Assembly (NCBI GenBank): GCA_002269645.1
Contig: NIVC01002065.1
Span: 143,744-207,743 of the forward strand
Length of the DNA: 64,000 nucleotides
Reading direction: 5' to 3'
Origin: Macrostomum lignano
Taxonomy: Eukaryota
Shown piece by piece: positions 18,326-63,365 of this stretch. Each line of letters opens with the position of its first letter. Position 1 is the stretch's first letter. A model generated the notes under the pieces. It worked only from the letters and a program-made list of their open reading frames with translations, made no database searches and was not told the DNA's origin. A program made the position numbers and the translations under genes.

Positions 18326-18412
18326 ACTGGCAACAGACTTGAGTCAGAGAGAAAGGATCTAAGCTGATAAGCGAAGAATATTCGCTCTTTAGTCATGCAC
18401 TGTACTGAGCAG

Positions 18413-18865
18413 GCCGCCCCCTTCCCTCCCGGCATGCAGGGCGGACCGCTGGCCAAGTCCGATCAGGACTATATAAAAATTGCCTTCCGTCAGGCTGGCG
18501 ACATCGAGTTCCTAGCCGGCATTGAGGAGGCTCTGCGCAACAAAGTCTGGGCTAAGCAGGCGCCGGCTGCGGCTTCGCAGCGTCACTTCGGCATCGGCGG
18601 CATCGAGAGGCGCATGGCTGAGCAGCGTAAAACTGCGGACAGGAGCATCGCCGAGGCGTTCGACGATTTGGACGCGCTGATGCGCCTAGCCGAGCCTATG
18701 GTGTCCATGACCAAAGCGGTGGCGCAGCGGATGCGGGACAAAGCTCCGCCTGAGGATGAAGCTGCTCAGCTCAAACAGCACCTGCTGGCTATGGGCGTGC
18801 AAGATCCAATTACTAGAGAGCAGTACGGTGGCGGATCGCATTATTTTAATAGCCTGGCCAAGCAG
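18413..18865 (+). CDS. VPS36: VPS36 exon 2
   Basis: YIKIAF..GIGGIERR..IAEAFDDLDALM..LLAMGVQDPITRE..LAKQ; acceptor GAGCAG|, donor CAG|GTTAGC, phase 0/0. Confidence 0.9.
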
Positions 18866-18904
18866 GTTAGCTGATAGTGTGTTCATTTTATTAGCCTGGT
18901 AGCG

Positions 18905-19235
18905 AAAGGCGGAGTCCTGCTGAGTGAGTGAGTAGTGAATGGCGGAGTCCTGCTGAGTGAGTGAGTAGTGAATGGCGGAGTCCTGCTGAGTGAGTGAATA
19001 AGGAATGGCAGAGTCCTGCTGAGTGAGTGAATAAGGAATGGCAGAGTCCTGCTGAGTGAGTGAATAAGGAATGGCAGAGTCCTGCTGAGTGAGTGAATAA
19101 GGAATGGCAGAGTCCTGCTGAGTGAGTGAATAAGGAATGGCAGAGTCCTGCTGAGTGAGTGAATAAGGAATGGCAGAGTCCTGCTGAGTGAGTAGGGAAT
19201 GGCAAAGTCCTGCTGAGTGAGTGAGTAGAGAGTGG
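18905..19235. repeat. 33-bp minisatellite (GAATGGCAGAGTCCTGCTGAGTGAGTGAATAAG)n, VPS36 intron 2
   Basis: Direct inspection. Confidence 0.9.
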
Positions 19236-19295
19236 CGGAAAAGCTCGCATACAGGACAGCATAGACACCTATATCACCGCAACTTTCCTCAACAG

Positions 19296-19730
19296 GTGAG
19301 CGAATTCCTAGAGCAGCCGCTTCGCGAACGCAGCGGCGTAATGACCCTGACAGACGCCTACTGCCTGTACAATCGGGCTCGGGGACTCGACCTGATCTCG
19401 CCGGAGGATCTGGTTGCGGCGGCGCGGGCCATGAGCCAGCTGGGCTTGGCAGTCAGGCTGCACACCTTCGATAGCGGCGTTATGGTGCTGCAGCTGGCCA
19501 GCCACAATCAGCAGGCGGCGCTGGAGTCAGCGGCCGAGGCTGTCAGGCAGCGGGGCCACCTCACCGCCCAGGAGCTGTCCAGAGCTGCCGGCCTGTCCGT
19601 CACGCTGGCCAGAGAGCGGCTGCTGCTCACTGAAGCAGCCGGGCTCACCTGTCGCGACGACGCCGTCGAGGGACTGGCTTTTTATCCTAATCTGTTCGAC
19701 ACGTTTCCAGTTGAGACTGTGGCAGAATAG
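19296..19730 (+). CDS. VPS36: VPS36 exon 3 (winged-helix C-terminus); spliced product ~391 aa
   Basis: GVMTLTDAYCLYNRARGLDLISPEDL..FDSGVMVLQL..ERLLLTE..CRDDAVEGLAFYPNLF; acceptor TCAACAG|. Confidence 0.93.
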   Translation: MSEFLEQPLRERSGVMTLTDAYCLYNRARGLDLISPEDLVAAARAMSQLGLAVRLHTFDSGVMVLQLASHNQQAALESAAEAVRQRGHLTAQELSRAAGLSVTLARERLLLTEAAGLTCRDDAVEGLAFYPNLFDTFPVETVAE

Positions 19731-26079: not shown

Positions 26080-26903
26080 TCAGCCGGTGCAGGCCGTGTG
26101 ATTAACTGTTCCAATCACTTCAATCTTCACGCGGCCGCCCATGCCCGGCGCTCCGCCCACTCCGCCGCGCGCTCCTCGCGATAGATTCGGCGCCGCGTAG
26201 CTGCCGCCGCCGCCTCCGCCACGAGGTTCTATGCCGTCCACTCCTCCGCCGCTGTAGCCGCCTCCGCCTCCGCCGCCTCCATTTTGAGAGCCTAGCTTGC
26301 CACCTCCGCCGCCGCCTCCGCCGTAGCCGCCGTTGGCAGGCTTTCCAACTCCGCCGCTCCATCCGCCTGTCCGGGACCGTCCGTCTAGACCGGAATTTGG
26401 ACCACCGAATCGCCATCCGTCCGATAGCCAGCCGGCTCCACCACCGCCAAGACCGTGGTTGTTGTTGGTGCTGACGCTGGTTGGTTGCGGCGCGCCCTGG
26501 CCGCCGACGCCGCCGTAACCGACACCGGTAGCGTCGCTAACCGACTGAGTGCCGTTCTCACTGTCTGTCGCGTTCCCGCCGTTGGTCATTTGGGCAGCGC
26601 CGCCACCTCCACCAGCGGCCAGCAGTAGTACGGGCGTATCAGTCGCGTTTTTATACACAAAGCTACCGCCTCCGCCTCCGCCGCCGTTGTCAACAGTACT
26701 TTGGTCGGCGCCGCGTCGGCCGACGACGATGGTCAAATTGTCGGTCTCGCTAAGCGTGAATGCCGCCTCTTTATAGGCGCCAAGACCGCCAGTTCGGCTT
26801 AACTGACCGCCGCCATGGGCGCCCCAGGCGCGGATGCGGTAGCAACCGGCGCCAAGGACTGGCGTGTAGTACATAGGCGTTCCCATGTGGCTCGGCGTGT
26901 CAT
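26080..26903 (-). CDS. Last exon of nested antisense gene: glycine-rich domain of the ALK/LTK extracellular GR type
   Basis: YRIRAWGAHGG..GGLGAYKEAAFTL..LTIVVGRRG..GGGGGGGSFV..LLAAGGGGG..GGYSGG..GGGGGSY; acceptor TTTTCCCTCAG|, phase 1. Confidence 0.8.
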
Positions 26904-27647
26904 CTGAGGGAAAAAGATAATTGTAAACATTTCGACTGGCTTTGTTGCACTAAATTAGAAAGTACACTACCATTGAAGGCTTCCAAATGGGCTTCCAATA
27001 GTGACAGTTAAAATAGATATACATCGAATCCACTGATCAGCATTTGCGCTCAAATGTTTCATATTACAAATCGATTTGAAATCCTTTAATTGGCTTCATC
27101 AGTCAGAAATTATACAATTAGAGTGTGTCATCCTGTTCACCTATGGAACAAATGTTCGGACCAATGTTGGAAACATTATAAGGACAAATAAAGCAACATT
27201 TTCAGATGGTTAAGCTGATAAGCGTTTAAGCTAGCTCGTATATAGTAATCACTATGCCATTATTTCGGGCAGAAATCCTTACCTGACGCTTGCGGTAACT
27301 TTTTAAAAGCTTATTTTCTCCTCTATGCTTTTTAGTGCAAGCTAAACCACACCAAAGAAGAATTTTATACCTTGCTAGATATCTTCCGTCACTGTAGCTA
27401 GGCAAACAATGAGTTGTTTAAATAATAATCCTAACTACACAATTACAACCTGCTTAGTATCAGATTGTTAATATGCTGCGAATAAAAGCTTCTTGGTAAA
27501 TCAAACATCATTTGTTTGTAGAGCTTCAGCTAGAGAGATGGTGAGAGTAAGAAACAAATTATCCATAGTAGAGAGTTGCTACCTCCTCGTGAAAGTCTAC
27601 TGCTCCTGGTAGAAGAATCGATGAAAGCTACTACTCGGGCCTCTCAC

Positions 27648-31335: not shown

Positions 31336-32759
31336 ATACTTCACTGAGCTTTCCTTGAAAATTTTAACTGTACTTTTATCTGATCGGATATTGGCTTAGT
31401 TAAAATAAGTTGTTGCAAAAAATCTATACACACTACTGTTAGCGCCAGTGTCTTAAATACAGTAAGATACGCCACTTTTCTATATCCTCAGGAGTAAGCT
31501 TATAGAAAGAAGGCCAGTTGAAGTGACTTGTAGGCGTAAACAAACTTGACAATCTGTGGCAGCCGTAATGTACATTAGCCAGCGCCACTGAGAATGTACA
31601 TAGCATGGCAGCTTTAAGCTGGAACACCGAGAGAAAAGCAATAAAAGAACGAGAGAAAAGCGGGGGTGCGGCGCTTTTATAAACCCGAAATTTTACAATG
31701 TCAAAATACACGGAAGACGTAGGAGACTATTCGACTTTATGAAATTTCAGTATAGTGAAGAGTAGCGGTATTTTTGAGTTTTCGATGTTGTGAAATTTCG
31801 GGTTAGTGAAATTTCGACTTTATGGAATTCCGAGGCTGTAAATTTTCCGTGTTGTGATCTTTGGACATTGTGAAAATTCGAGTTTATGAAACGACCCCGC
31901 GATGTTGTATCGAAAGACTTGTTGAAAGGGTTTAAGCTATGGAGAGAAAAAAGAAGGCCCATTAACGTATTTATATTTTTCTAAAATTAGAAACATTTAA
32001 ATATGCTTCTAATAAACTGAAAGTAGTATATACGCAAAATCGGTTCATCCAGAAGATTGCTGCCAACCGATTTCGCCTTGTCTCAATTTCTCTGCCAATA
32101 AATAGGCTTTAACCGAATCGCACTAGCTACTACTAACTAAATTTGAGAAAGCCAGTAGTATTGGAGTCTATTTCTCAAAAAATCTTGTGGCTAATATCAA
32201 TATTGAAGATACTCTTATATTCAAAGCATTTTAGGAGTAGCATGTTTGGGCAAAATCTTCATAAACAATTACGCAGATGTACGAGCGTATGTCTTACTAT
32301 TTTAACGAAATTGTAAATTTTTCATTTGTTTCAAACTTTTTAAAAAACATTAAGCGCCTTACTAAATGCATAAAAACAAGTACAAAGACAATGTATATAT
32401 TTGATTATTGCTTTTCTATGCTGTTGTGTTTGTTTGTTTCTTTTATTTATCACAAATACAGTGCGTAAAACCTAATACTACTAGAAGTAGACGGGAAGAG
32501 TATTCCGTATCTTAGAAAGTTTTATCAATAATTTTTGAAGCTCGCATTGTCATCCACTTAGTAAGTCTATATTAAATTCATATTTTGAGTTTAAGAACTT
32601 GCCTTCGAGCTTAATTGGTATCCCTTTATTAGGCATATTACTAATTGGCTGGCGAAGCATTGAATTAACAAAACACCGCTCATTTACTCCCGCCTTTTAC
32701 CCACGCAGACTGACTAAAAAAAATTAACGTCTAGAACTATCTCAGTCCTATATACTAAC

Positions 32760-33216
32760 ATGGATTTCAACGACGTAAAAATTACACTTCGAGCGGTGCT
32801 GCTGTCCACAAAGAGTCGTTCGATCCCGATTAACGAGCTGCCCTACGAATTCAAGGGGCTATCCGGCAAGTCGCTTGATTATAGGCAATTCGGCTACGCT
32901 TCGCTCAGCAAAATGCTGCTGGACATGCCGGACACTGTCCGACTGTCGGACGGCGGCCGGCTAGTTCACGGCCTTTCCAACGCCAACACGAGCCATATTG
33001 AGAGCCTAATCCGCAATCAACTACCCAGCGGCCGGGACAAGCGTGGCACCAGGGGTAGCAGCTTCCGGCGCCTCTCATCGGATGGCAGGCGGATATTTAG
33101 GCGACTTCCGGTGCCCAGTTTAATAGACGATCAAGCGGGTAGAAGGAGCCTCGATAGGAGTTCTGCTGGACAGAGCCAGACCAGCACTGGCCGCAGCGTT
33201 CGTCCTATTGGAATTT
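32760..33216 (+). CDS. LOTUS/OST-HTH domain protein exon 1 (TDRD5/TDRD7/Tejas-type extended LOTUS)
   Basis: VKITLRAVLLSTK..YEFKGLSGKSLDYRQFGYASLSKMLLDMPDTVR..TSHIESLIRNQ; donor T|GTAAGT, phase 1. Confidence 0.85.
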
Positions 33217-33336
33217 GTAAGTGTAACTGGTGTCCTGTTGCTTTGGATAGCTGACTAGCTCGTAGCTAGATAAATAGACTGATTGATCCTTTTTGTATAA
33301 TAACCAAAGCGCAAGCATACTTTTTGTTCTTTTTAG

Positions 33337-48580: not shown

Positions 48581-49010
48581 ATAACAACAACAACAAAATA
48601 CGCGACCCCGCATGCACAGTCAACAGTTAGAGCAGGGCGCGTCAGATGGCGCGCCGCAGAGCCTGGGAGCGAACAAAGTCAGCTCGGCAGTGTCGGGCGC
48701 CCCAGCGTCGCACAGCAGGCAGTCCACGTATCGACGGGTTCGGGCCTAACCCCGCCTGAACGGACCCCGCAAGGTGAGCAGCAGGACGTCCTGAGCAGGT
48801 TGGGGGCAGTAGCCCTCGGCCCGGATCACGTGGCTCGCCAGTTGAAGTCGCCGCCGGCGCAGGATGGTGAACGGGCGCTGCAGCTTGGCCCGATCGGTCC
48901 CGACGCCTCGGTCCCGACGCCTCGGTCCCGACGCCTCGGTCCCGACGCCTCGGTCCCGACGCTCTCGTTAGCTCGAAAGGCCGCATGGAGCAGCCCTGAG
49001 TGCGCCGAGT
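48581..49010 (-). mobile_element. 5'-truncated RTE-like LINE 3' end with (TTG)n tail and internal 14-bp repeats
   Basis: Minus strand reads TILRRRRLQLASHVIRAEGYCPQP..LLLTLRGPFRRG.ARTRRYVDCLL, then TTGTTGTTGTT. Confidence 0.7.
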
Positions 49011-49856
49011 TGATGTGTTCCTTGTTACCCGACCGACTTTCGGTAATCAAAGAACAATCACTTCTAGCTCTGTAGCTAGGCAACCCAGTAAGTCAATGAA
49101 GGTATTTATTACCTTGAGTACTGATCAGTTGATCTCTTCCTGAGCGTTGTTCTCGCTAGTAGATCTTAGGGCGCCTCTCGTCGGTGTCTGGTCCGGTCCT
49201 CTTTGTCCTCTCTGACTTCTGGCCGGCCGGTATCTGTAGTTCGGACCAATCGGAAGCTTCGAATTAACAATGGGATCCCTGCGCCAAACTGCGGTATAGT
49301 ATAAGCCTACTCCTTCTAGCAGTGCCTCTTCGCACTCTAGGAATAGCTCCGGAGACCACTGATAGCCTTCTAAGATCTATCAGGGGCAGTCCTTCTGGAG
49401 ACTGCAACCAGTGGAGTCTAAACAGACTCTCTAAAGTTGTGATTATTGAATGGCAATAGGCAAAAAGAAAGTGAAAAATTGTGCAAAGTGAAGCTGTAAG
49501 GCAGTCAAACATTCAGGATTCAGCAAAGTTAAATAGTTATACTGCTTTTTTTCTTGGAAGATCCGAATCGATTCTGGTTCTGGAATTGGTTAATGTGAAA
49601 AGCTCCAATGAATCGTTATCGTAATTACGTTTTGATCGTAGGTCCACGAGTTTAAAAATTTATTAAAACACGCACGTGCAGCTAGAAATTGTTTGTAAGC
49701 GTGCATGCCCGCTGCTGCACTACACTTACACTGTAAGTAGACCTTAGACAGGGTGTAGGTCGAAGACGAATAGACGATAAATAAGTTACATAGCCTAATC
49801 ACGCATTCATAATTATTTGTTTTTATCCTTATTCCATTCCATATCGGCATATGACA
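49011..49856 (-). mobile_element. Older LTR related to the intact gypsy element, inverted orientation; right boundary inferred
   Basis: 49011-49430 is the reverse complement homologue of the LTR 3' half (...GGAACACATCA end). The candidate TG start at 49856 gives ~846 bp. The U3 part is not alignable by eye. Confidence 0.7.
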
Positions 49857-51638
49857 TTGTTTCAATTGATTTGATTTTGATCCTTTGAGTTTGACTAGGC
49901 ACTAGGCAGGGCCTATAACTTTGGGAGTCATCTATTTTTATAGGCTATTATTATTAATTTGCCCAATAAAATGTGTATCTCTATGTCTTGATCTGCTTTT
50001 ATTAATTTGTCTATTATAAAACTTTTAAATGAAATCTAAAAAGAAAAATGCTAGGATAGGCCTAGGCACTAGGCAGGCAGGTGCAGGCCTTGCTTGTTTA
50101 ATTTATATTTAGTTTTAAATAAGGCCTTTTTTTATTAAACTAATAAATTATTTAAAGACAATGGCTATATCTAAAATTCTACATTTAAGAATTAAGGGCT
50201 AAGAGGGGCATGGTATCTGCCTATGGCATGGGCTATGATATGATATGTCAACAAATCTGAATACATATTAATTGATATTAGACTTAGGCGTTAGGGGTTA
50301 GATAGGATTGAAGTCATCAATTAGGATTGGAAATATTTTTCTCAGGTTTGGGATCAGGATTAGGAATCAGAGTCAGGTTTTTTTGTTTATTTTATAGGCC
50401 TAGCTTTGTTACTTTTAACATAACTTTTTTATTTGTAAGATAAAGATATTTTCTATTTGTTATTTTAATTCTTTTTTTGTTTCTTTTTTGCTACTTTTGA
50501 GGTAGGGGATTTCAAAATAGATTGCTACACGCCAATACTGCAGCCCTATAGTCAGGAGCATGGCACTCTTGTGCCAAAACAAATCCAATCAAAAAAGTTC
50601 GCTTGTACCATGTGCCAGAACTATTCCTATCAAAAAGCTTGCTTGTACTATGCTGGAACTTTTAAAAAATTACAAAAAATGCAAAAACCGGTATTTTCCA
50701 TTGGAAAAATTCTAGTAAAACTTGTATTTGAATCTGTTTAATAGAAAATGCAATGTTAACATATATTAATTAAAAATCATCAATATACAACAAACAAAAG
50801 TGCTAGGCCCCATAAAAAGAAATTACATGCTAATTTTCTGTTTGTAAAAATATTGTCTTGCTGAAAGTTTTTGGCTTGCAATAATTTGCACCATTTTTTG
50901 TCTTGCGTAATATAGTATTGCACTGAATTTTTCCCCTTGTCTACTGTTGTGCCAGAATGTGCCAGAATGGGTGATGCATGTCCAACCCCCTTTTGCACCA
51001 GAATTTTCCATGAAAAGACCATTTTCCTTACTATGGCTATAGCTATTGGGTTGGCAATTTGTCAATATTTGAATTTACAGACTTAAAGCCAGAAAACTTA
51101 AAGCAATATATATGTTTGAATCTGTATTGTTTATTCCATCATCTGCTATAGGTTCTCAATTCCAGGGGAAGGATAATAAAAATATTGTAGCCAAGAGGTC
51201 ATTCTTCTATATGTATATAGTATACCATTTTTTGAATTTGCCAAAATGTTTTAATACTTTGCCAAAATATTACTTTTGTGATTCACTGAAACATTAATTT
51301 GCCAAAACATCATATAGCCACTATAGTTCATAGATCCATATAGAGTTGAACAGAGTTGAACAAATACTATTAAGATCAGATCAAAAGATAAAACATGATA
51401 GAATAGATATAAAGTTTTGTAACCAATGAAGATTATTATAATGAGTATAAGTTAAAACAGAATGCATTCAAGTAATCACTAATTCTATAAATTTAGAATC
51501 AAAAGACCTATTTCCAATTTTCATTGTTAAGGTTAGGATCCCAAGAATATGGGATCAGGATTCAAATCCTATTTGACCTCTAGTATATATTTGGTAGTAT
51601 CATATACATTAATCTGATACTATAAATATACTAGCTAC

Positions 51639-52502
51639 TGTAGAGTGTTCTACCTCCCGTTAAAAAAGGAAAAAAGAAGATAATCGTATAATACTACTAT
51701 AAGTAAGTAAGTACACGCATGTGCGCCTAAGCTTTGAATGAATCACGCTACCAGAAAAAGATGTTACCAGAATAATACGCCATGAGCCATTTTCCCCTTT
51801 TAGCGCAACACGTGAATTGTCATGATACTATTTTGGATCAAAAACTTGTCTATAAATACAAGCGATCTGAAGCGGTACCGGAGCCATTCTCCCCACGGAA
51901 GAGGAGCGCTCCGAAGAGGAAGCCTTAGGAGGACTTCCTGATCTACCAAGTCAATCGAGACTCGGTCGAGTTGTTGCGGTAAGCCTTCCTTATTTGCGCC
52001 CGTTGTGTTAGAGACGTCTCGCTCAAGTCTATTGAGACTTGAGTCTAATTGAGTCTGTTGAGACTCTTGAGTCTGTTTAGACTCCATTGGTTGCAGTCTC
52101 CAGAAGGACTGCCCCTGATAGATCTTAGAGGACTATCAGTGGTTTCCGGAGCTATACCTAGAGTGCATAGAGGCACTGCTAGAAGAAGGAGGCTTAATTT
52201 AGACCGCAGTTTGGCGCAGGGTACCCATTGTTGCTACGAGGCCTCTGATTGGTCCTGACGGAAGATACCGGCCGGAAGAACTTATCGGAAGTACAAGAGG
52301 AACCAGGACCAGAGCAACTGAAGAATCAAGGCGCCTGATCTACGAGATCTACTGACAAGTTCCTAGCGAGAACTACTCAAGAAATTCAAATCCGGATTAA
52401 AGGTAATTGAATACCTTCGTTTGACTTACTGGGTTGCCTAGCTGTTGAGCTAGAAGTGATTGTTCCTTGATTATCGAAAGTCGGGTAATAAGGAACACAT
52501 CA
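51639..52502 (+). repeat. 5' LTR (864 bp), TATAAATA at 51851-51858
   Basis: Starts TGTAGAG, ends ACATCA; matches 61388-62250 except one visible 1-bp indel. Confidence 0.96.
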
Positions 52503-52504
52503 AT

Positions 52505-52515
52505 TGGTGATCTCG
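52505..52515 (+). promoter_or_regulatory. Primer binding site TGGTGATCTCG, compatible with tRNA-Trp
   Basis: 2 nt after the LTR; pairs with a typical tRNA-Trp 3' end (CGGGGUCACCA) allowing two G:U pairs. Confidence 0.6.
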
Positions 52516-53216
52516 CCCTCTCGGCACTACTCAAACCTTGAGCAATAGCCTGGCCAAGCTATTGTAAAGTGACGACAGAGCGACTTCATTAATTTTGCGC
52601 GCACGTGTTAGAGTTAACACTTTTTAAGTCCGTTACGTTTTGAAACTCGAGTAAAATTTGGTGTACAGGTTTGAGCACCTGTCAAATTTGAGTACAGTTT
52701 GAGCACGCGTGTTAAAATTTTGTTTTGACGAGCTCGAGCAAGTGTGAGTTTAAAACAAAACCGAAATTAACTTCGTCGGTACACTGAAAACAAACCAAAA
52801 ATAAAAAAATCGTCGACGCAAACAAACAAAAAATAACTGAAACATTTTGCCGGCACAAAAACTAAAACAAAACCGAAATTAATTGAAACTTCGTGGAGAG
52901 CAGAGTTAATTGACAAAAGAGAGAGAGTCAAAGAAGAGAAGAAAGACTTTGCAAAGCAAGAAGACAAGTCCACTTCAACTTGAAGATACACTTTGCGGGA
53001 CGCCGCATAAGTGCGAAATCAGCAAGCGAACAGAACAAGTTCATTTGAGGACAACCAGTGGCAGCAAGCCACACCGCATCCGAGGCCAGCGAATAACAAA
53101 TCGACACCACAAGGCAATTCGTTACAGTCGAGGTTTATTCCGAGGCAAACACCACACTGGACGATCCGTTACAAATCGATCCAGATCTTGAACTACCGTT
53201 CTACCCTATCAACAAC

Positions 53217-54923
53217 ATGGCGCGGCGCAATCCAACGGTACACAGAGACATCAAAGAAACGGTCGGTACTTTCTCGATGGAGAAAGATTTTAACACATTT
53301 GTCGACCATTTTGACCTGGTATGTAGGGAATACAACCTACAAAATCCAGAGAAGGCACAGCTGCTGCCACCTCTTCTCCAAGGTACTGCGCGAGAAATTT
53401 ACGGCAAGCTGGATGCGGCAACACAGCAAAATTATCCAGCACTAATCATTCAACTGCGCGCGCATTTCAACCGTTGCGGCACAAACAGATCAGTGCTGCT
53501 GCACAAGTTGCATAACAGAAGGATGCAAGCAACAGAATCCTTCCTCGCCTTTGTGGACGATATCCGCCAGATAATTAAGGCACTGCATCAGCCACCGCTG
53601 CAAGCTGCGGACCAACCACCACTGGGAGCGGCAGAATTGGCCGCCAGAGAAAGACAACGATTGATGGATCGTGAACAAAACCTCATCCTGCACGTAATAA
53701 ACAACGCACAGCCGTCACTTCGGGATAGACTTTTGCGTGAAAATATCGAAACCGAAGAAGACCTTTTGCGTTGCGGAATGCAATGGGAAGCCAGTGCCCC
53801 ATTAATGACGACAGGCAACAATGAAGTGCAGAAACTGACGCAGCAACTAAACAAGTTAATGCAGCACCAGACAGCTGCTATCGCCGAACAAAAAAGACGA
53901 AATGAACAAGCCTCAGCCAGATGTTACTACTGCGGACAAGAAGGACATTATCAGATTAATTGTCCTCATTGGTCAACAAGATACGACAAGCCGCGACAGA
54001 TATTCAACAATCAGAAGCCGCAGAAACCATGGCAGCAATATCAAAATCGCCAACAACAAGGCATAAGACGCTTCGGAAATGATAGACGCTTCGGAAATAA
54101 TGACCGCTCCGGAAATGATGGCCGCTTCGGAAACGAAGGCCGCTTCAGAAGTAATGGCTACAGGCCACGCAACGTCAGATACACACAAAGACAGCCGACG
54201 CAAGCAATGCCACGATACGCGAATGCCATCACGTACACACCGGAAAATGAACAGCAAGAACAGCAAGTGTTCACAATTGACGACTTGGAAATGGACTTCA
54301 CAGTCCCGGAACTTGACATCAGCTTGATCGAAAAGAAGACGACGCACGAGGACAACACTGACAACACAGAAGAGACGAATGAAACCGAAATGATCAAATT
54401 AAAAGAGACCACCGGAGACAGCAGAGAAAACAGGAAGAAAGTAAATCACAAGACAAGGGAGGAGGCGGAGAGCGACATCGGCAACGAAGAAAAGATGAAA
54501 ACCGGCGAAGAAAACAACTATGAATCGACAACAGTGGATGACGACAAAACGAGCATGAAAGACAAAGAAATGAAAGAAGAAGAAGAATGTAGAAGTTACG
54601 GCAACGACCACGACTGCGAGGTGCGTGATGACACGAACGACTACCAAGCCGAAAGAGGAATGCAGGAAGAACCGAGAGCGGAGAATCTAAGTTCCGACAG
54701 CGATCAAGGCTACGAAATACAATGGAAAGATGAAGAAATGGAAAAAGAACAGGTGAAAGAAAAGCCGAGTTCCGACAGCGACGAATGCTACGAGATCCGA
54801 TACAAACGAAATGGTGAAGCCTATATTCAAACGGTCGACTACAAGACAGAGAAAAGATACCAAACGCAATGGAGTGAAACAACGGAAACATCGGAAGAAG
54901 CGCAGACGAAGATAATGAAATAA
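53217..54923 (+). CDS. gag: Gag (capsid-like, CCHC knuckle, long acidic C-terminal extension)
   Basis: F..FVDHFDL..LLQGTAREIY..LRAHF..LHNRRMQATESFLAFVDDI; CYYCGQEGHYQINC at ~53922-53963. Confidence 0.92.
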   Translation: MARRNPTVHRDIKETVGTFSMEKDFNTFVDHFDLVCREYNLQNPEKAQLLPPLLQGTAREIYGKLDAATQQNYPALIIQLRAHFNRCGTNRSVLLHKLHNRRMQATESFLAFVDDIRQIIKALHQPPLQAADQPPLGAAELAARERQRLMDREQNLILHVINNAQPSLRDRLLRENIETEEDLLRCGMQWEASAPLMTTGNNEVQKLTQQLNKLMQHQTAAIAEQKRRNEQASARCYYCGQEGHYQINCPHWSTRYDKPRQIFNNQKPQKPWQQYQNRQQQGIRRFGNDRRFGNNDRSGNDGRFGNEGRFRSNGYRPRNVRYTQRQPTQAMPRYANAITYTPENEQQEQQVFTIDDLEMDFTVPELDISLIEKKTTHEDNTDNTEETNETEMIKLKETTGDSRENRKKVNHKTREEAESDIGNEEKMKTGEENNYESTTVDDDKTSMKDKEMKEEEECRSYGNDHDCEVRDDTNDYQAERGMQEEPRAENLSSDSDQGYEIQWKDEEMEKEQVKEKPSSDSDECYEIRYKRNGEAYIQTVDYKTEKRYQTQWSETTETSEEAQTKIMK

Positions 54924-54967
54924 CCAAAAAGCAAAGCGAATCAGAAGCCTTCCGCCTGGATCAGCCA

Positions 54968-57900
54968 ATGGAACAACCGAAAGAATATGATGCGGACATG
55001 GAAGATAACGAATGGCGATCGCAGCCAATGCCAGCAAGGACAACGGCAAAATCCAAGAAGTGGAAAAACTGGCTATTCTGGATCATCGTGATACTACTGA
55101 TAGCAGTAGTCGCCAAAGCAACGGCAACGGAAAAGCCAATGATTTGTCCAACGGATGCGCATATCCAACCGATGATCTACAAGATACCAACCGACATCAA
55201 ATGCAGTTACTTCAAGACAAACCAGACAAAACCAAAGAAGATTACACTCGATCTCTACAAGGCTAACATCAAGAAGCATCGACAACACGGGATAGTATGC
55301 TTCAGAGACAAGCACCTGGTGGAAAAAGTTTGGCGCGGACAATGGAACCGGATCCGATTTAAACAACATGAGCTACATGTGTCGCACGCGGAATGCCTAC
55401 AATGGAATCAAACACTATTTTCAAAGGATGGTGAACTGGAACCAGATGAGAAGGTCGGCAACGCACAGCTGTTCAGAACAAAGAATTCAGCCAACGGTCG
55501 ATATATTCACTTCTTCGGAAAATGGAAAGAATATATGGCACGCAACAGCTACTTGATCAGAAATATTCCATTCTACTACAATCCGTACGAGAAAATGGAA
55601 TCGTTACAGCTGCAACTAAGCGAATGTCGATACAGTGAAGGATGGTGTCCAACGCCGATTCTACGGAAGGAAGAACTACACAGTCTACCACTGAGTCCAA
55701 CATATCATCAAGACTATCGATGGCAGATTGAGCACAGAGCACAATCACACTATGAGGAACCGTACAAATCACGACAATACTTCTTCGCGTGGGAAGTTGA
55801 GCCGGAAATTGACTGCAAGCTTCAAAAGTATCACACAGTTGAAGGAGGACTACTGTCAAATACGTTTTTGGCAAAGTCAGGAGACTTGGCACTGACGTTT
55901 CAAAAGAAACCAGTCGAGCAAAAACTGAAATGCAAGGATACAGACAAGACACTATTCATCTCGGAACAAGAGATACCAGTCTACGTAAAGGATGAAGACA
56001 AACAAACCTTCTTGGCAATCATCAATGGAACGTATCAGCAACAAGAAAAACAGAATAGAAGACGACGTGACATCGAACGTCCCAAACTGGTGTCAAACCG
56101 GCTGTTGTCAGCAAAGATAACGGCTTTGGATCACAATCTACACAACCAGTTAAACCACTTGCATCGAACACTGGTCCAGCTAACTTGCAAAATGCACGCA
56201 ATCAACTTAAATTATGCCAGACAAAACTACTATGTCAACCCTACGATGACTTTTCGTAAAATCACCGGAATGACGAACGTTTTGGCAGTTCCAATATACG
56301 AGCATCTGTTGATATACAAGTGCACGCCGATACAGCACTTTAACATCTTGCCGTCAAACACGTCAACAACCTGCTACGATAAGCCAAGGATTGAAGCGTT
56401 CTACGAAGGAAAACGAATTCAGGGATTCTTGGACACGGTACACAACATCATCGTTGGCACCGCAATACCGAGACCTTGCACCACGGCAGTAAACTACTAT
56501 CAACTGGACAATGCACTACACGTCATCAAAACAACTGGAACGACAGCAAACGTCACAGAACCGGAAGTAATCGTCGACGAAAACTACGACATGGAGGATT
56601 TGAAAATCCGATTCAACAGAACGAAGTATACGCCATTCGCCGATATCCAACTTGACGAGATAACACCAGGATGGACGATCAACGACTTCTTGCAAGCGTT
56701 CATCACCCAACGCAAGATGATTCACCAGCTGTTCACAAGAAAGGACAAAGGAACCGGGACAGGAAGATTTCCCGTCCTTGTTTCAATGGACAGCGCCATC
56801 AAATCATTTTGGACAAATAGCTTCTGGGAGCTGCTCAATGGAAGAGGCAGTCTCTATCAAGGATTCATCTTCTACGGTGCTTGCATTGTGTGGATTGTCA
56901 CGGCAATCTTCATCATTTCATCGATCGTACGGTGCTTCAGTCAAACTTGTCCAAGAGCTAAGAAGACAGTGAATGCCATAATGCAAAGAACGACAACGGA
57001 AAGCGACAACAGTTTAGAACTAACAGAAACTGCACATTGTGAGGTTCAAGGGCAACCGACACTAGCAACGCGGCTATATCCATCGATTCCGACAACACCA
57101 ACGGCACCAAGGATACAACCACCCAACTATCAAGCAGAACAGCACGAGCCAAAATGGCCGGAAAACTACGTCTGTACGCTACACGCCGAGATTGGCAAAG
57201 CAATGGCTCAGGTCATTGTCAACAACTTGCCATGTCGAGCACTACTGGATTCAGGCAGCTCGATCACAGTCATCTCGCAACAATTATGCAACAAGCTACG
57301 ACTCGCGGTACGACCAGCAGCAATCGCAGTTGCAGGAGCAGGAGGACATTCACTCAACATCCTAGGAAAAGCAGATATCGACTTGAAAATTGCTAATAAA
57401 CAGCTGACGGTCCCGACGTACATCATCGACAGACTACCAAACCAAGACGTCATCGTTGGAATCGACACGTTCAAGCAGCTTCAACTACCATTGACCTTCG
57501 ACTTCAACAAGCAAACGTTTAGGATCGACACGGTGGAGCAACCGCTGATCAACCAGATTCGAGTACTACCGAAAGTAACTCTGCAGCAAGATGTCATTAT
57601 CCAGCCTGAAAGCGCATGCTGGGTCAGAGCGAAAACGACCAGCGCGGCAGATGAAGCAATGATATTTGATCCACACAGGAGAGTCACGGCAAAACATCAA
57701 ATCATGATGCCTACGGCACTAGTGCTGGTTGCAAAGGATAAGCAACTGCCAGTACAAATCTTCAACCCGAACACAGAAACGGTTCATCTACGACAAGGAA
57801 TGTGCATCGGTCATCTCAACACCCAAGCATCGGTTATGCTGATTGAACAAGCGACTCCACGACTAACAGAGGAAGAATTTCAAAAGAAGATCAATTTGGA

Positions 57901-60712
57901 TGACAGCCCGATTACGGAACAGCAAAAGAGGAAAGTTCGACAGCTGTTGTGGAAGTACAACGAAGCCTTCTGCCATCATGATTACGACATCGGACGAGCC
58001 AAGGACATCAAACAGGAAATCAAACTTCTGCCGCACACGGAACCAATTCAGTGCAAGCCGTACCCGATCGCCAAGCATCTGCAACAACACTTTGACGAAA
58101 TCATCGATAAAATGCTAAAGCACGGCATCATCAGCAAAGCTATTTCGGCTTACTCCTCACCGTGCCTACTGGTACAGAAGAAGGAGACAAACGAAAGACG
58201 ACTCGTATGCGACTTCAGACTGTTGAACAAGTACATACCGACGGATCAGCAAAGCCTACCGAAGATCTCCGAACTACTAGCAAAGCTCAACACGGCAAAA
58301 TTGTTCACGGTGTTCGACCTACGTCATGGATTTTGGCAAATTGAAATCGAGAAAGAGTCACGACAGTACACGGCTTTCAAAACCTACAATGGACAAGTAT
58401 ACGAGTACAATCGATCGCCGATGGGACTTAGCAACAGCCCAGCAACGATGAGTCGACTAACAGCATACATGCTAGCAGGATGCACGAACCTGCTGCACTA
58501 TGTCGACGACATTTTAGCCTACGGAGAGGATTTCGAGCGACTCTACGAAGCTACGGAGAAGGCCCTAGCGCTCATTCAACGCCAAGGTCTGAAGCTACAA
58601 CCAACTAAATGCAAATTCTTCCGAGACAACGTGCGTTACCTGGGACATCAGGTGACAGCCAAAGGAATCTCACCGGACCCAGACAACGTGGAAAAGGTGA
58701 AGAAGTTTCCTACGCCAACCAGTATAACGAAGGTCCAATCATTCCTTGGACTTGCGCAATACTTCAGGAAGTTCTTACCTAACTTCGCAAAGACAGCAAA
58801 GCCACTGTACGACCTGCTCAAGTTCGACAAATGGAAGCAAGACAACTGGACACAGAGACAACAGGAAAGTTTCGACGAAATCAAACGACAGCTGACATCA
58901 GACGCACTGCTACAGCATCCGGACTTCGACAAGCCCTTCATCATCGAGACAGACGCCTCAGGAACGGGACTCGGAGCAGTCCTACTACAGGAAACCGAGG
59001 ACAAGAAGGAACGACCTATTGCTTACGTCAGTCGAGCACTCAAACCAAATGAGACAAAGTGGTCAGCTACGGAACGAGAGCTACTAGGAGTCTTGTTCGC
59101 CCTGCGACAGTTTCATTACTACATCTATGGTTCTCCAATACAGACGATAGTACGCACGGATCATGCACCATTGACCTACGTCGTAACTACAAAAGGACAG
59201 ACCAACAACCGACTCATCAGAATGACACTCAAGATCCAGGATTACAACTACAAACTCGTCTACAAACCAGGAATTACCAACAAAGCCGCGGACGCCCTGT
59301 CAAGAGCCTATGAAGTCAACGCCATTCATCCAATCCCTAACATCAAGGAGTTGGTGGATGAAACCGAGCGCGACAACTTCTACCAAGCGGTTAAAGACGA
59401 CGACAAGAACATCAAACTCAGTCCCATGGAACGAAAATTCCTACGCAAGCAACGACAACACCTAACAATCAATAAGTCACGGCTCTACTGGATGAGCGAC
59501 AATAAACCCAAGATCTACATACCATATTCGTTTCGGCAAGCAATTCTCAACGAGCTACACGACAACCCACTCGCTGGACACCTGTCGGCAGCAAAGACCA
59601 TCGCGAGAGTGGAACAATACTACTTTTGGCCAACTATGTACGGCGACATCAAGCAGTATTGCAACAACTGCCATTCATGTGCTGCATCAAAGACAGGACG
59701 ACGACAGAAACCGCAGCTACAGTCCATTCCGAAGTCGACTACAATGGACTGTCTAAGCATCGACATCACCGGACCGCTACCACCGAGCTGTCTCCAGGGC
59801 ATCGCCTACACCTACATTCTAACCGCCTTGGATATCTTCTCGAAGTTTGCTATCGCCATACCGATACCGGACATCACAGCTCAGACAGTGGCAATGAGTT
59901 TCTTCAACGAAATCATTTGCAAGTACGGCACGCCGAAGAACCTCACATCGGACAACGGATCGCAGTTTACATCGCAACTGTTTCAGCAAGTCGTAAGGAT
60001 TCTCAACATTACGCAGATCTACACATCGACCTACAATCCGAAGGCAAACATGGTTGAACGGTTTCACCGCAACCTGCACGAGATGATTACACATTTCGCG
60101 CACCAACAGCCGGAAGACTGGATCATCTACCTGCAATCTGTAACAATGGCCTACAACAGCGCTATTCATCGATCAACGGACAATACGCCATTCTTCCTAA
60201 TGTTTGGACGAGACTTCCAACCGCCGAATCTGCTCGCACAGCAATTGCTACCATCGCAGTACGTGGAAGTACCGACTTCCATTCAGAAATTCGTCACGCA
60301 ACTACACCTCGCATGGAAGATCGCCAAGCACAACATTGACAACCAGGTGGCTCTGACCACCGGCAACGACGCGAGATCGACAACCCTGACGGCCGGCGAC
60401 ATCGTCTACCTACACTACCCGCCACAGCAGACGCATAAACATGCACAGAAGTACAAAGGACCCTATCGAGTGGTCCAACTAACGTCACCAACAACGGCAC
60501 GCCTGGCTAATGTACAAGATCCACATCAGCACCAGTTCTACGTACACATTCATCGACTAAAGAAGATCAACACTGACACAGCGACGTTTCTACCGACATT
60601 AGACAACGCTGATCGCACGCGTTCAACGAACCGCCACATCGCGACGAAGCACGAGGAGACTCAAACGACAGATGTGAGCCAGCCACATGGCTACAACCTA
60701 CGACCACGCTAG
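54968..60712 (+). CDS. pol: Env-Pol fusion polyprotein, 1914 aa: Env-like glycoprotein then protease, RT, RNase H, integrase
   Basis: LLDSGS (57245), LRHGFWQI, YVDD (58499-58510), ETDASGTGLGAVL, HHCC + DITGP..DNGSQF..ERFHRNL, GPY; N-terminal ~660 aa has two hydrophobic segments and 12 ectodomain Cys. Confidence 0.95.
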   Translation: MEQPKEYDADMEDNEWRSQPMPARTTAKSKKWKNWLFWIIVILLIAVVAKATATEKPMICPTDAHIQPMIYKIPTDIKCSYFKTNQTKPKKITLDLYKANIKKHRQHGIVCFRDKHLVEKVWRGQWNRIRFKQHELHVSHAECLQWNQTLFSKDGELEPDEKVGNAQLFRTKNSANGRYIHFFGKWKEYMARNSYLIRNIPFYYNPYEKMESLQLQLSECRYSEGWCPTPILRKEELHSLPLSPTYHQDYRWQIEHRAQSHYEEPYKSRQYFFAWEVEPEIDCKLQKYHTVEGGLLSNTFLAKSGDLALTFQKKPVEQKLKCKDTDKTLFISEQEIPVYVKDEDKQTFLAIINGTYQQQEKQNRRRRDIERPKLVSNRLLSAKITALDHNLHNQLNHLHRTLVQLTCKMHAINLNYARQNYYVNPTMTFRKITGMTNVLAVPIYEHLLIYKCTPIQHFNILPSNTSTTCYDKPRIEAFYEGKRIQGFLDTVHNIIVGTAIPRPCTTAVNYYQLDNALHVIKTTGTTANVTEPEVIVDENYDMEDLKIRFNRTKYTPFADIQLDEITPGWTINDFLQAFITQRKMIHQLFTRKDKGTGTGRFPVLVSMDSAIKSFWTNSFWELLNGRGSLYQGFIFYGACIVWIVTAIFIISSIVRCFSQTCPRAKKTVNAIMQRTTTESDNSLELTETAHCEVQGQPTLATRLYPSIPTTPTAPRIQPPNYQAEQHEPKWPENYVCTLHAEIGKAMAQVIVNNLPCRALLDSGSSITVISQQLCNKLRLAVRPAAIAVAGAGGHSLNILGKADIDLKIANKQLTVPTYIIDRLPNQDVIVGIDTFKQLQLPLTFDFNKQTFRIDTVEQPLINQIRVLPKVTLQQDVIIQPESACWVRAKTTSAADEAMIFDPHRRVTAKHQIMMPTALVLVAKDKQLPVQIFNPNTETVHLRQGMCIGHLNTQASVMLIEQATPRLTEEEFQKKINLDDSPITEQQKRKVRQLLWKYNEAFCHHDYDIGRAKDIKQEIKLLPHTEPIQCKPYPIAKHLQQHFDEIIDKMLKHGIISKAISAYSSPCLLVQKKETNERRLVCDFRLLNKYIPTDQQSLPKISELLAKLNTAKLFTVFDLRHGFWQIEIEKESRQYTAFKTYNGQVYEYNRSPMGLSNSPATMSRLTAYMLAGCTNLLHYVDDILAYGEDFERLYEATEKALALIQRQGLKLQPTKCKFFRDNVRYLGHQVTAKGISPDPDNVEKVKKFPTPTSITKVQSFLGLAQYFRKFLPNFAKTAKPLYDLLKFDKWKQDNWTQRQQESFDEIKRQLTSDALLQHPDFDKPFIIETDASGTGLGAVLLQETEDKKERPIAYVSRALKPNETKWSATERELLGVLFALRQFHYYIYGSPIQTIVRTDHAPLTYVVTTKGQTNNRLIRMTLKIQDYNYKLVYKPGITNKAADALSRAYEVNAIHPIPNIKELVDETERDNFYQAVKDDDKNIKLSPMERKFLRKQRQHLTINKSRLYWMSDNKPKIYIPYSFRQAILNELHDNPLAGHLSAAKTIARVEQYYFWPTMYGDIKQYCNNCHSCAASKTGRRQKPQLQSIPKSTTMDCLSIDITGPLPPSCLQGIAYTYILTALDIFSKFAIAIPIPDITAQTVAMSFFNEIICKYGTPKNLTSDNGSQFTSQLFQQVVRILNITQIYTSTYNPKANMVERFHRNLHEMITHFAHQQPEDWIIYLQSVTMAYNSAIHRSTDNTPFFLMFGRDFQPPNLLAQQLLPSQYVEVPTSIQKFVTQLHLAWKIAKHNIDNQVALTTGNDARSTTLTAGDIVYLHYPPQQTHKHAQKYKGPYRVVQLTSPTTARLANVQDPHQHQFYVHIHRLKKINTDTATFLPTLDNADRTRSTNRHIATKHEETQTTDVSQPHGYNLRPR
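55070..56940 (+). other. env: Env-like (gB/class III fusogen-like) segment of the polyprotein
   Basis: Signal anchor WLFWIIVILLIAVVAKA, furin RRRR (56057-56068), six N-glycosylation sequons, TM GFIFYGACIVWIVTAIFIISSIV. Confidence 0.85.
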
Positions 60713-60832: not shown

Positions 60833-61207
60833 ATGGGCAACGCACTGTCAAAACAGGCGCCCCAGCCTCAGCAGCTATATGACTGCCCGATATGTTTAAC
60901 TGATGACTTGGCTGTCAAGCCACCGACTATTTGCATCAACGAACATAAAGTTTGCGGACAATGTTTAAGCGATTCACATTATATTCAGCCATGGCAGAAT
61001 TGTCCCCTCTGTAGAGATAGTTTGCGACAATGTGCCTATTGTTATTCTTGGCGCACGTTTCAATATTGTAACCACCAACATTTTATTTGCATGCACTGTT
61101 TGAAGCAAACCGCTAGTAGGGGCGTTATAGGATGCCCCTTATGTAATAGTATGCCGCGAGACTGCACGTTTCGAAAGTGGTGTCGGATCAAACCTGATGC
61201 CACTTGA
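60833..61207 (+). CDS. Accessory ORF3: 124-aa double RING-finger protein with N-myristoylation motif
   Basis: MGNALSK; C-x2-C-x12-C-x3-H-x2-C-x2-C-x12-C-x2-C followed by C-x2-C-x8-C-x3-H-x2-C-x2-C-x11-C-x2-C. Confidence 0.82.
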   Translation: MGNALSKQAPQPQQLYDCPICLTDDLAVKPPTICINEHKVCGQCLSDSHYIQPWQNCPLCRDSLRQCAYCYSWRTFQYCNHQHFICMHCLKQTASRGVIGCPLCNSMPRDCTFRKWCRIKPDAT

Positions 61208-61372: not shown

Positions 61373-61387
61373 AAAAAAGGGAGATTT
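61373..61387 (+). promoter_or_regulatory. Polypurine tract
   Basis: AAAAAAGGGAGA-TTT immediately before the 3' LTR, preceded by CTCGGGACGAGTTTTTT. Confidence 0.8.
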
Positions 61388-62250
61388 TGTAGAGTGTTCT
61401 ACCTCCCGTTAAAAAAGGAAAAAAGAAGATAATCGTATAATACTACTATAAGTAAGTAAGTACACGCATGTGCGCCTAAGCTTTGAATGAATCACGCTAC
61501 CAGAAAAAGATGTTACCAGAATAATACGCCATGAGCCATTTTCCCCTTTTAGCGCAACACGTGAATTGTCATGATACTATTTTGGATCAAAAACTTGTCT
61601 ATAAATACAAGCGATCTGAAGCGGTACCGGAGCCATTCTCCCCACGGAAGAGGAGCGCTCCGAAGAGGAAGCCTTAGGAGGACTTCCTGATCTACCAAGT
61701 CAATCGAGACTCGGTCGAGTTGTTGCGGTAAGCCTTCCTTATTTGCGCCGTTGTGTTAGAGACGTCTCGCTCAAGTCTATTGAGACTTGAGTCTAATTGA
61801 GTCTGTTGAGACTCTTGAGTCTGTTTAGACTCCATTGGTTGCAGTCTCCAGAAGGACTGCCCCTGATAGATCTTAGAGGACTATCAGTGGTTTCCGGAGC
61901 TATACCTAGAGTGCATAGAGGCACTGCTAGAAGAAGGAGGCTTAATTTAGACCGCAGTTTGGCGCAGGGTACCCATTGTTGCTACGAGGCCTCTGATTGG
62001 TCCTGACGGAAGATACCGGCCGGAAGAACTTATCGGAAGTACAAGAGGAACCAGGACCAGAGCAACTGAAGAATCAAGGCGCCTGATCTACGAGATCTAC
62101 TGACAAGTTCCTAGCGAGAACTACTCAAGAAATTCAAATCCGGATTAAAGGTAATTGAATACCTTCGTTTGACTTACTGGGTTGCCTAGCTGTTGAGCTA
62201 GAAGTGATTGTTCCTTGATTATCGAAAGTCGGGTAATAAGGAACACATCA
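61388..62250 (+). repeat. 3' LTR (863 bp)
   Basis: Near-identical to the 5' LTR. Confidence 0.96.
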
Positions 62251-63365
62251 CTACTAGCTAGGGTTAGGCCCACAATATAATATGAGCATAAGAAAGTTAA
62301 GCCATTATCCCAAGGATTTTGATACCTTACCTTTCTAAGGCCCTAGAGTCCTAGGTATAGCTACTATAGATTTTCAAATGGATTTTACACTATATAGCCT
62401 AAGACCTAAATAGGCCCATTGATGTAACCGCCCTTGTCGCCAGTCCACTCCTATTGAGAGACGAACGCTTGGCTAGAGGGGGCAATGACCGTAGGCTGCC
62501 TATGACCGGGCAATGACCTGACGGACCTCCAGCACCAGACTGTCCCGCCCACATGATTAGTAGCTTTGGTAGCGCTTCGTGACCAGAGGGCCAAGGACCC
62601 ACATGGACCCCACCTGTAGCCAAGGTGCAATAGTTGGTCACTCGGTCATGGTATGACGAGTGGCTGCCACCACTCTATGTGACCTGGTGCACCTGGATCT
62701 TGCTACCAGACCTCTTGAGGCTAGAGCCCCGCCTGGATTGGTTACCAGGGGATTTAGGCTAACAGGGGAGACGCATGCAGCCGAGTACAGGGACTCTGCT
62801 TGGGGCATGATCGGGAACTCTGGGCTCAATCCTGGAGGATTTCTCAGCAGGGGATCCTTGTGGCTGTGAGCGAGGCTGACTTGCGACTTTGATTACTAAG
62901 AGGTAGTATGAGGTGAACATGTACTGTCTCTAGTTTTAGATTGCTCAGGGCAAAGAGGCGCGTCAGCATGGGGTTGCAACCTTCCTACTGCCATTCTGTG
63001 CCAAGACTCGCTAATCCTCTACTGCACGCACGCACGGCCCCGCAGCCCGCACTCACAGGCGAGCTTTGCACGGGAGAGGCCATTAGCTTACCCAAACTTC
63101 TCTATGCTTTGCCACCGGGAGAAAGGCTTAGCAAGCCATGAGTGAAATGATGGTGAAAGAGTGAATAATGATGAGGTTAGTTAATAGTTAATAATTAGGC
63201 CCTTAGGCAAATAATCAGGCAATTAGGCGGCTTCACTATTGAGTAAAAATACAGCAAAAGGTACGGTATCACAACTGGCTCAGCTCTCTAATCAGACCAT
63301 GGAAAAATAGGCAAACTCCGGATAAGCAAAGGCAATTAGAGCACAAATCAGTAACAGGAACTTAC

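Follow-up and report, generated by a model that had tools for sequence, protein, structure and literature searches.

The window analysed here is a stretch of 64,000 nt from Macrostomum lignano, and all coordinates count from its position 1. Judged by its domains and repeats, the segment 51639–62250 is a Ty3/gypsy long terminal repeat (LTR) retrotransposon (Metaviridae), an errantivirus of GAG-ENV-POL order. Its envelope protein (Env) is almost certainly a class III fusogen of the herpesvirus gB type. In the explanation that we favour and consider likely as a whole, this gB-type Env is made within a single polyprotein, supports ESCRT-dependent budding and membrane fusion, and is accompanied by RING ubiquitin ligases encoded near the 3′ end of the element. 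A gB-type env in a gypsy element is, as a kind, already known, and the budding motifs in the Env tail together with the variable RING cassette may be new features.

The env region contains the following features.

55070–55126, plus strand: first membrane segment or internal signal sequence, from hydropathy and a similar segment before env in relatives
55127–56830, plus strand: predicted gB-type (class III) Env ectodomain with 12 Cys and 6 sequons, from profile homology
55328–55339, plus strand: candidate fusion loop 1 (VWRG), from profile alignment to gB, the loop assignment being tentative
56057–56068, plus strand: furin-type site RRRR
56117–56479, plus strand: core helix and domain IV-like part, where the gB match is best
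56861–56932, plus strand: second membrane segment (anchor or stop-transfer), from hydropathy
57077–57130, plus strand: late-domain-like cluster in the cytosolic tail, with YPSI at 57077, PTAP at 57098 and PPNY at 57119

The original prediction, made from the letters of this DNA, read the interval 55070–56940 as a class III fusogen of herpesvirus-gB or chuvirus-G type, with the stretch from the core helix to domain IV as the part parallel to gB. All six peptides quoted there are present in the plus-strand open reading frame (ORF) 54878–60712 (ITALD... at 56117, VNPTM... at 56234, LLIYKCTPI at 56306, TCYDK... at 56369, IQGFLD at 56417 and PRPC at 56468). They are preceded by RRRR at 56057, and the count of six N-glycosylation sequons is likewise correct. 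The count of 12 Cys applies to the ectodomain; the whole interval holds 14, of which one lies inside the second membrane segment and one directly after it.

On its own, the window Env matches PF24664 (Monjiviricetes_fusion) in Pfam with E values of 8e-6 to 4e-5, under the curated cut-off, and gives no gB match among PDB sequences, where five unrelated hits appear (best E 0.67). An exhaustive homologue search recovered 60 Env relatives at E≤0.001, and the window protein was aligned with 46 of them (alignment A1, 47 rows; the 14 left out are mostly long polyproteins). The profile of this alignment finds herpesvirus gB in the PDB with a best E value of 8.9e-17. All 19 matches at E≤0.001 and 46 of the 47 at E≤10 are gB. 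The strongest part of the match runs from the core helix through the NPT motif to domain IV, in agreement with the region singled out by the original prediction, and a second, weaker stretch (E 0.027 alone) is colinear with the gB N terminus, including the Cys pair and the first fusion-loop region. In addition, 22 of the 47 aligned proteins match PF24664, four match PF00606, and one weakly matches Baculo_F. Word-indexed searches gave one match for Env and two for the Env profile, and so few matches are no proof of absence. We assign the protein to class III because of the profile homology over the core helix, domain IV and the N-terminal Cys, together with the published classification of such elements.

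Each of the 12 ectodomain Cys is kept in all or all but one of the 28–41 alignment rows that cover it. The gB segment aligned by profile with the VWRG region is what we take to be gB fusion loop 1, and the W position is aromatic in 23 of 30 relatives; the candidate for loop 2 is weak. The first membrane segment is preceded by a basic stretch and followed by an A-x-A motif, which we infer to be a signal peptidase site. Env lies between gag and pol, flanked by a signal or membrane segment on one side and a membrane anchor on the other, as expected of a gB-type GAG-ENV-POL errantivirus.

Env is under purifying selection. The ratio of nonsynonymous to synonymous substitution rates (dN/dS) was obtained from six pairwise comparisons of the window with six diverged copies, which share history and are non-independent. 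It is 0.08–0.11 in the N half of env and 0.05–0.15 in the C half, compared with 0–0.02 in reverse transcriptase (RT), 0.03–0.08 in integrase, 0.08–0.32 in the RING gene and 0.34–0.43 in the acidic spacer of gag. Relaxed selection, which the original prediction had named, together with a lack of fusion activity, as evidence against a fusogen, is not seen at env values of 0.05–0.15. Within the N half of env, a block of roughly 600 bp (55200–55800, the fusion-domain region) is 10–19% divergent from all eight copies compared, and from 56400 on the window is only 0–4% divergent from the closest of the same eight. This block appears to have been swapped into the window's subfamily by recombination, and its dN/dS is still near 0.1.

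These values bear on whether Env serves infection. It could instead be kept for structure, with the element budding into the endoplasmic reticulum (ER) or travelling in vesicles inside a single cell and with the membrane segments mainly anchoring Gag and Pol. Mammalian IAP elements bud into the ER, and stops and frameshifts in env would be purged whatever Env does because it is embedded in a polyprotein. Maintenance of the frame, however, leaves unexplained a dN/dS near 0.1, the invariant cysteines, the furin site and the aromatic loop at the fusion-loop position; the acidic spacer of gag, which shares the frame, reaches 0.34–0.43. We therefore regard a structural role as unlikely, and an Env that functions in entry as quite probable.

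The position of env, overlooked in the original prediction, is between gag and pol and in the same frame as pol. The coding parts around it are as follows.

53217–54923, plus strand: gag, from the first ATG at 53217 to the stop after a frame break in 54878–54923
57209–57466, plus strand: aspartic protease with LLDSG at 57242, sharing the frame of env (Pfam scan)
58175–58654, plus strand: reverse transcriptase, YVDD at 58499 (Pfam scan)
58847–59245, plus strand: gypsy-type RNase H (Pfam scan)
59519–60712, plus strand: integrase (H2C2, core and C-terminal part) to the polyprotein stop (Pfam scan)

The env-pol ORF on the plus strand (54878–60712) has 1944 codons and is open through protease, RT, RNase H and integrase. 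Gag contains a single CCHC knuckle (around 53922–53969) and a long acidic C-terminal spacer with 31% D+E. In the window copy, the env-pol frame opens at 54878, before gag ends at 54923 in another frame, and there are ATGs ahead of the signal-like segment. This arrangement by itself would fit two separate frames, joined by programmed −1 frameshifting or with env-pol started from its own ATG. The other copies argue otherwise: nine of 11 near-identical sister loci read gag into env in one frame, and seven of the 11 are uninterrupted over the 5.2 kb examined. Moreover, 17 of 20 diverged copies and all four sequencing runs examined carry a one-base indel relative to the window in the gag/env overlap. 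Scattered one-base indels are common in the assembly, at least one being found in env-pol in 17 of 20 copies, and three of the 20 diverged copies have an open frame all the way from gag through integrase. By this comparison, the break in the window is a one-base indel private to this copy or its assembly. A programmed gag/env frameshift was consequently rejected on the joined frame of the sister copies and the private indel, and separate frames of either kind are scarcely credible.

Gag, Env and Pol are thus very likely parts of a single polyprotein. The frame in sister copies has about 2,500 codons and would encode, in order, Gag, membrane segment 1, the gB-type ectodomain, membrane segment 2, the tail with proline motifs and protease-RT-RNase H-integrase. 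In 29 of the 60 Env relatives the chain that contains Env also bears gag, protease or RT marks, and ten bear marks of both the gag side and the pol side. No joint that skips env was found in the four sequencing runs, in which contigs drop rare forms. Among 24 rows examined for expression, 19 contain the stretch and none is registered as RNA.

The tail between the second membrane segment and the protease contains YPSI, PTAP and PPNY within 18 residues. Retroviral late domains of these types bind TSG101, Nedd4-type ligases and ALIX. Elsewhere in the env-pol frame these patterns do not occur, and a single YPAL is present in gag. When the 86-residue tail was shuffled 20,000 times, three motifs were never reached. 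Every one of the 11 host loci examined, from families down to about 28% Env identity, has one or more motifs within the 120 residues upstream of the protease. Among distant relatives with a measurable tail, five of 16 have a motif, and the density is 2.8 per 1000 residues in the tail compared with 0.4 elsewhere (six motifs in 2,115 tail residues, ten in 24,142 other residues). Whether these motifs drive budding is, in our estimate, evenly balanced.

Between integrase and the 3′ LTR the element carries an accessory gene.

60833–61207, plus strand: accessory ORF with two tandem C3HC4-like RING fingers, from Pfam and profile searches

This ORF is a shortened form of a gene of about 220 amino acids in sister copies, which contain the long gene and a second paralogue at 23–24% identity. 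Of 212 candidates for the RING protein in the host genome, 150 were scored and 148 of these matched. Three RING genes lie inside matched LTR pairs at L048, L065 and L066 (LTRs 99% identical), and two at L057, L067 and L068 (LTRs 100% identical). A family about 75–80% identical in pol likewise has two or three RING paralogues between matched LTRs. At L043 and L046, seven to nine RING-like matches, some broken, run over about 8 kb directly after integrase, and no flanking LTR was found in the stretches examined. Across copies, the cassette comprises one to three double-RING genes, and perhaps seven.

The first finger has the features of a RING-HC domain, namely C3HC4 spacing, hydrophobic residues after the first CxxC and an Arg after the last; the second finger is a weaker match. 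A RING profile matches the RING domains of TRIM21, SIAH1, TRIM5 and RING2 with E values of 6e-6 to 5e-5. A word-indexed search with the RING protein returned no match, and such a blank is no proof of absence. A myristoylation-like MGxxxS start is present only in the first RING gene of the window's subfamily, and is found neither in the other paralogues nor in sister families.

The RING cassette is under purifying selection. The genes could still be decaying passengers acquired from the host or from another mobile element, in keeping with a gene number that varies from none to several and with the truncations and stops. Against such decay, paralogues within one element are only 19–38% identical and yet keep their zinc ligands, 13 Cys/His columns and an Arg after the first finger being invariant in all ten aligned proteins, and the dN/dS of 0.08–0.32 points the same way. 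We hold the passenger origin to be a minority possibility of some weight. The odds that the RING proteins work as active E3 ligases for the element are about even. In more distant env-bearing families other ORFs follow integrase: a 260-residue ORF with no convincing Pfam match (L073, 2296–3078, minus strand) and an 84-residue hydrophobic, Cys-rich ORF, which may lie inside or outside the LTRs (L070, 904–1158, minus strand).

The remaining landmarks define the element and its boundaries.

51635–51638, plus strand: 5′ target site duplication CTAC, the same 4 bp as after the 3′ LTR
51639–52502, plus strand: 5′ LTR of 864 bp, TG...CA, from sequence comparison
52505–52516, plus strand: primer-binding site, its reverse complement equal to the 12-mer listed for Mlig_errantivirus_2
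61373–61384, plus strand: polypurine tract
61388–62250, plus strand: 3′ LTR of 863 bp, 99.88% identical to the 5′ LTR
62251–62254, plus strand: 3′ target site duplication CTAC

These landmarks, together with the order protease-RT-RNase H-integrase, the gypsy-type RNase H, the H2C2 integrase and the CCHC Gag, place the element in Ty3/gypsy; the Pfam matches behind these domains are PF17919, PF17917, PF00078, PF17921, PF00665 and PF00098. The LTR starts are 9,749 bp apart. The 5′ LTR has a TATA box at 51851 and an AATAAA/ATTAAA-type signal at 52396. A pattern search of the LTR, suggested by the available parts of PMC12801592, found no canonical heat-shock element.

The element family is young, multicopy and recently active, as follows from the near-identity of its LTRs and the many copies at about 100%. 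In a DNA search of the host genome, 40 of 93 candidates were scored; 15 of them, the window copy among them, are at about 100% and the other 25 at 92–94%. Several near-identical copies have uninterrupted frames, and the window copy itself has the one frame break. At the protein level, the Env core matches 132 of 137 candidates, and these matches fall into several families down to about 25% identity. Public proteins related to the element are labelled Macrostomum lignano, one of them 98% identical over one third of Env. A piece of the LTR family at 79% identity lies 2.2 kb upstream of the element in opposite orientation (49010–49429, minus strand), and is probably an older related insertion or a solo LTR. 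At L049–L052 (G000:C2121), nested or tandem pieces of the family are found, with integrase-RING-RING-LTR units repeated at 66–100% identity within 65 kb.

The original prediction attributed Env to an independent capture of a viral fusogen by this gypsy lineage, and this part of it is not supported. In favour of a recent capture from a chuvirus- or herpesvirus-like source, Env matches both PF24664 (mononega/chuvirus-type) and, by profile, herpesvirus gB. More than one gain is also possible, since GAG-ENV-POL elements are non-monophyletic and a single origin of errantiviruses is ruled out, according to the parts of PMC13524379 (Chary and Hayashi) available to us. The closest relatives of this Env, however, are Envs of retroelements in the same slot between gag and protease, including the relatives that carry env in one chain with gag or pol marks. 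Families within the host genome have diverged to 25–28% Env identity and still keep env with their own pol, and none of the 20 relative clusters looked up bears a viral name, most having no name at all. One Env relative is labelled as the nematode Panagrolaimus. Trees of Env and RT (ten rows, four of 14 having been dropped for lack of a usable RT or Env slice) both keep the five rows of the host together, with weak support; the slices include flanking residues, and long branches meet. In the same parts of PMC13524379, gB-type env is described as ancient and widespread in Ty3/gypsy and long associated with pol. Taken together, a recent independent capture is very improbable. The accompanying contrast between class III-like Envs in nematode and arthropod elements and F-like Envs in insect errantiviruses is incomplete; it leaves out the gB-type env of hymenopteran and hemipteran errantiviruses (PMC13524379). 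Among distant relatives, P0005 has a NADAR domain N-terminal to Env, and P0023, P0039 and others have two protease-like domains after it.

In the mechanism that we propose, a full-length RNA would direct the synthesis of one polyprotein, which enters the ER by its internal signal and crosses the membrane twice. Gag and Pol would stay in the cytosol, with the Env ectodomain in the lumen, and signal peptidase, furin and the element's own protease would cut the polyprotein apart. Being parts of one polyprotein, Gag, Env and Pol would be made 1:1:1 with no frameshift, and capsids would assemble at a membrane already holding Env. The late-domain-like motifs in the tail of Env, rather than in Gag, would recruit ESCRT (TSG101, ALIX and Nedd4-type ligases) for budding. 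The Env trimer would then fuse the particle with a neighbouring cell with no helper glycoproteins, probably from an endosome because no gH/gL/gD-like partner is encoded, leading to spread from soma to stem cells or from soma to germline. The RING genes, expressed from a separate message, would serve as ubiquitin ligases that counter host defence or take part in budding. A bolder version sees a complex-virus-like element with a twice-crossing polyprotein, budding signals shifted from Gag into the tail of Env and a fluctuating array of RING E3 ligases that degrade host defence; we offer it as a tentative and rather unlikely possibility.

Several observations weigh against the explanation as a whole. 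For Env, the single protein reaches no curated Pfam cut-off, the Atlas matches to class III glycoprotein clusters score 0.88 and serve as a lead only, and the single-sequence AlphaFold model (pLDDT 29) is unusable. The tail evolves faster than the rest of Env (dN/dS 0.31–0.38 where measurable). The patterns PTAP, PPxY and YPxI/L were chosen after the tail of the window had been seen, and they are absent from the tails of 11 of the 16 distant relatives; for these two reasons the enrichment of motifs is suggestive. For the RING genes, the matches of the window protein are under Pfam cut-offs, the window copy lacks about 1.2 kb, including the second gene, relative to L060, the gene is interrupted by a stop in another subfamily, and no cassette was detected in any of the four more distant env-bearing families of the host genome. 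Judged by these losses, the cassette is dispensable.

Outside the element, positions 1–47000 of the window contain dense minisatellite arrays with units of 8–95 bp. Host exons at 18371–19730 (plus strand), split by a minisatellite, match the ESCRT-II subunit EAP30/Vps36 (E 8e-30 and 2e-13), with no link to the element implied. A glycine-rich ORF at 26080–26949 (minus strand) matches the glycine-rich domain of ALK/LTK (E 2e-5). About 18 kb from the element, a host exon at 32718–33254 (plus strand) encodes an OST-HTH/LOTUS domain (E 4e-11), which is known from proteins of the germline and the piRNA pathway.

Gypsy elements with a gB-like env have already been published and this family is very probably catalogued, so the finding alone adds little. 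The family is, at the same time, young, multicopy and present in a laboratory model, which makes the entry of gB-type errantiviruses testable. A single membrane-threaded polyprotein raises the question of how the amounts of Gag and Pol are set without frameshifting. If active, the RING cassette would represent a new class of retrotransposon accessory gene and give a handle on the arms race with piRNA or innate defence. Should the complex-virus-like version be true, an invertebrate LTR element would possess a family of viral-style ubiquitin-ligase accessory genes, and its spread to stem cells or germline could be watched in a flatworm ready for transgenesis.

Compared with known systems, Env resembles herpesvirus gB (PF00606; PDB 9uy9, 3fvc, 7k1s and 5c6t) in the colinear N-terminal Cys pair, core helix and NPT motif, in the cysteines of domain IV, in the furin site and in the C-terminal anchor. 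It differs in its shorter ectodomain (about 570 residues), in being part of a polyprotein and in having no gH/gL/gD partner, and the homology is seen by profile only. Arenavirus Z is a myristoylated RING matrix protein, and the first RING protein resembles it as a small RING protein with an MGxxxS start encoded by an enveloped agent; an Atlas search placed a PF03854 (arenavirus Z) cluster at rank 17 with a score of 0.88. This likeness is superficial, because the myristoylation-like start is confined to that one gene of the subfamily. Membership among Z-like matrix proteins was rejected, since MGxxxS is not kept among paralogues, the products have two fingers and a helical domain, and it is the Env tail that bears the late motifs. 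Nematode endogenous retroviruses (NERVs; Sacco et al. 2022) are said to have a continuous gag-env-pro-pol ORF, an RNA-virus-type glycoprotein and small extra ORFs; the element described here differs in its flatworm host and in that its extra ORFs are double-RING genes.

Among LTR elements with other cargo or Envs, known to us from parts of the sources cited, Anakin (Pao/BEL, mosquitoes; PMC7642597) also has a class III-type glycoprotein, of chuvirus-like type, which parallels the weak PF24664 match seen here. The env of Tas is derived from herpesvirus according to the same source. Both are BEL/Pao elements, and Tas has env downstream of pol, whereas the window element has a Ty3/gypsy-type Gag with one CCHC and env upstream of the protease. 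Bdelloid LTR elements (PMC5408684) likewise have a slot for variable cargo after integrase and before the 3′ LTR, filled there by env, a GDSL esterase or a DEDDy exonuclease, with no mention of 'RING' or 'ubiquitin' in the available parts. RING was likewise not found in the available parts of PMC7642597 and PMC12801592, the latter mentioning neither env nor envelope in the parts searched. Late domains, too, go unmentioned in those parts of PMC5408684 and PMC12801592. Literature searches on RING accessory genes of LTR elements or errantiviruses, late domains of gypsy Envs and gag-env-pol polyproteins returned nothing relevant among the papers listed. RING genes and late domains were not found in the available parts of PMC13524379, figure supplements and subscription journals being outside this scope; its text there lacks 'RING', 'in-frame' and 'frameshift' and its supplements lack 'RING' and 'zinc finger', and figure supplements may show them.

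The closest likeness is to the HSV/gB-type errantiviruses of PMC13524379, which share a gB-type env between gag and pol and a flatworm host. The available parts of that study survey 1,512 env-bearing Ty3/gypsy elements, in which gB-type env is about as common as F-type, report that nematodes, bryozoans and flatworms have elements of GAG-ENV-POL order and that some insects carry gB-type env as well, and describe the entry mechanism of gB-type errantiviruses as unknown. Sacco et al. 2022 is cited there for the flipped ENV-POL order. Nine flatworm elements are tabulated, among them Platyhelminthes_Rhabditophora_Mlig_errantivirus_2, with LTRs of about 863–864 bp, LTR starts about 9.7 kb apart and 16 copies. 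The window element agrees in its LTRs of 864 and 863 bp, its spacing of 9,749 bp, its 15 near-identical copies and an identical 12-base primer site. Matched by these listed properties rather than by sequence, the family in the window is very probably Mlig_errantivirus_2.

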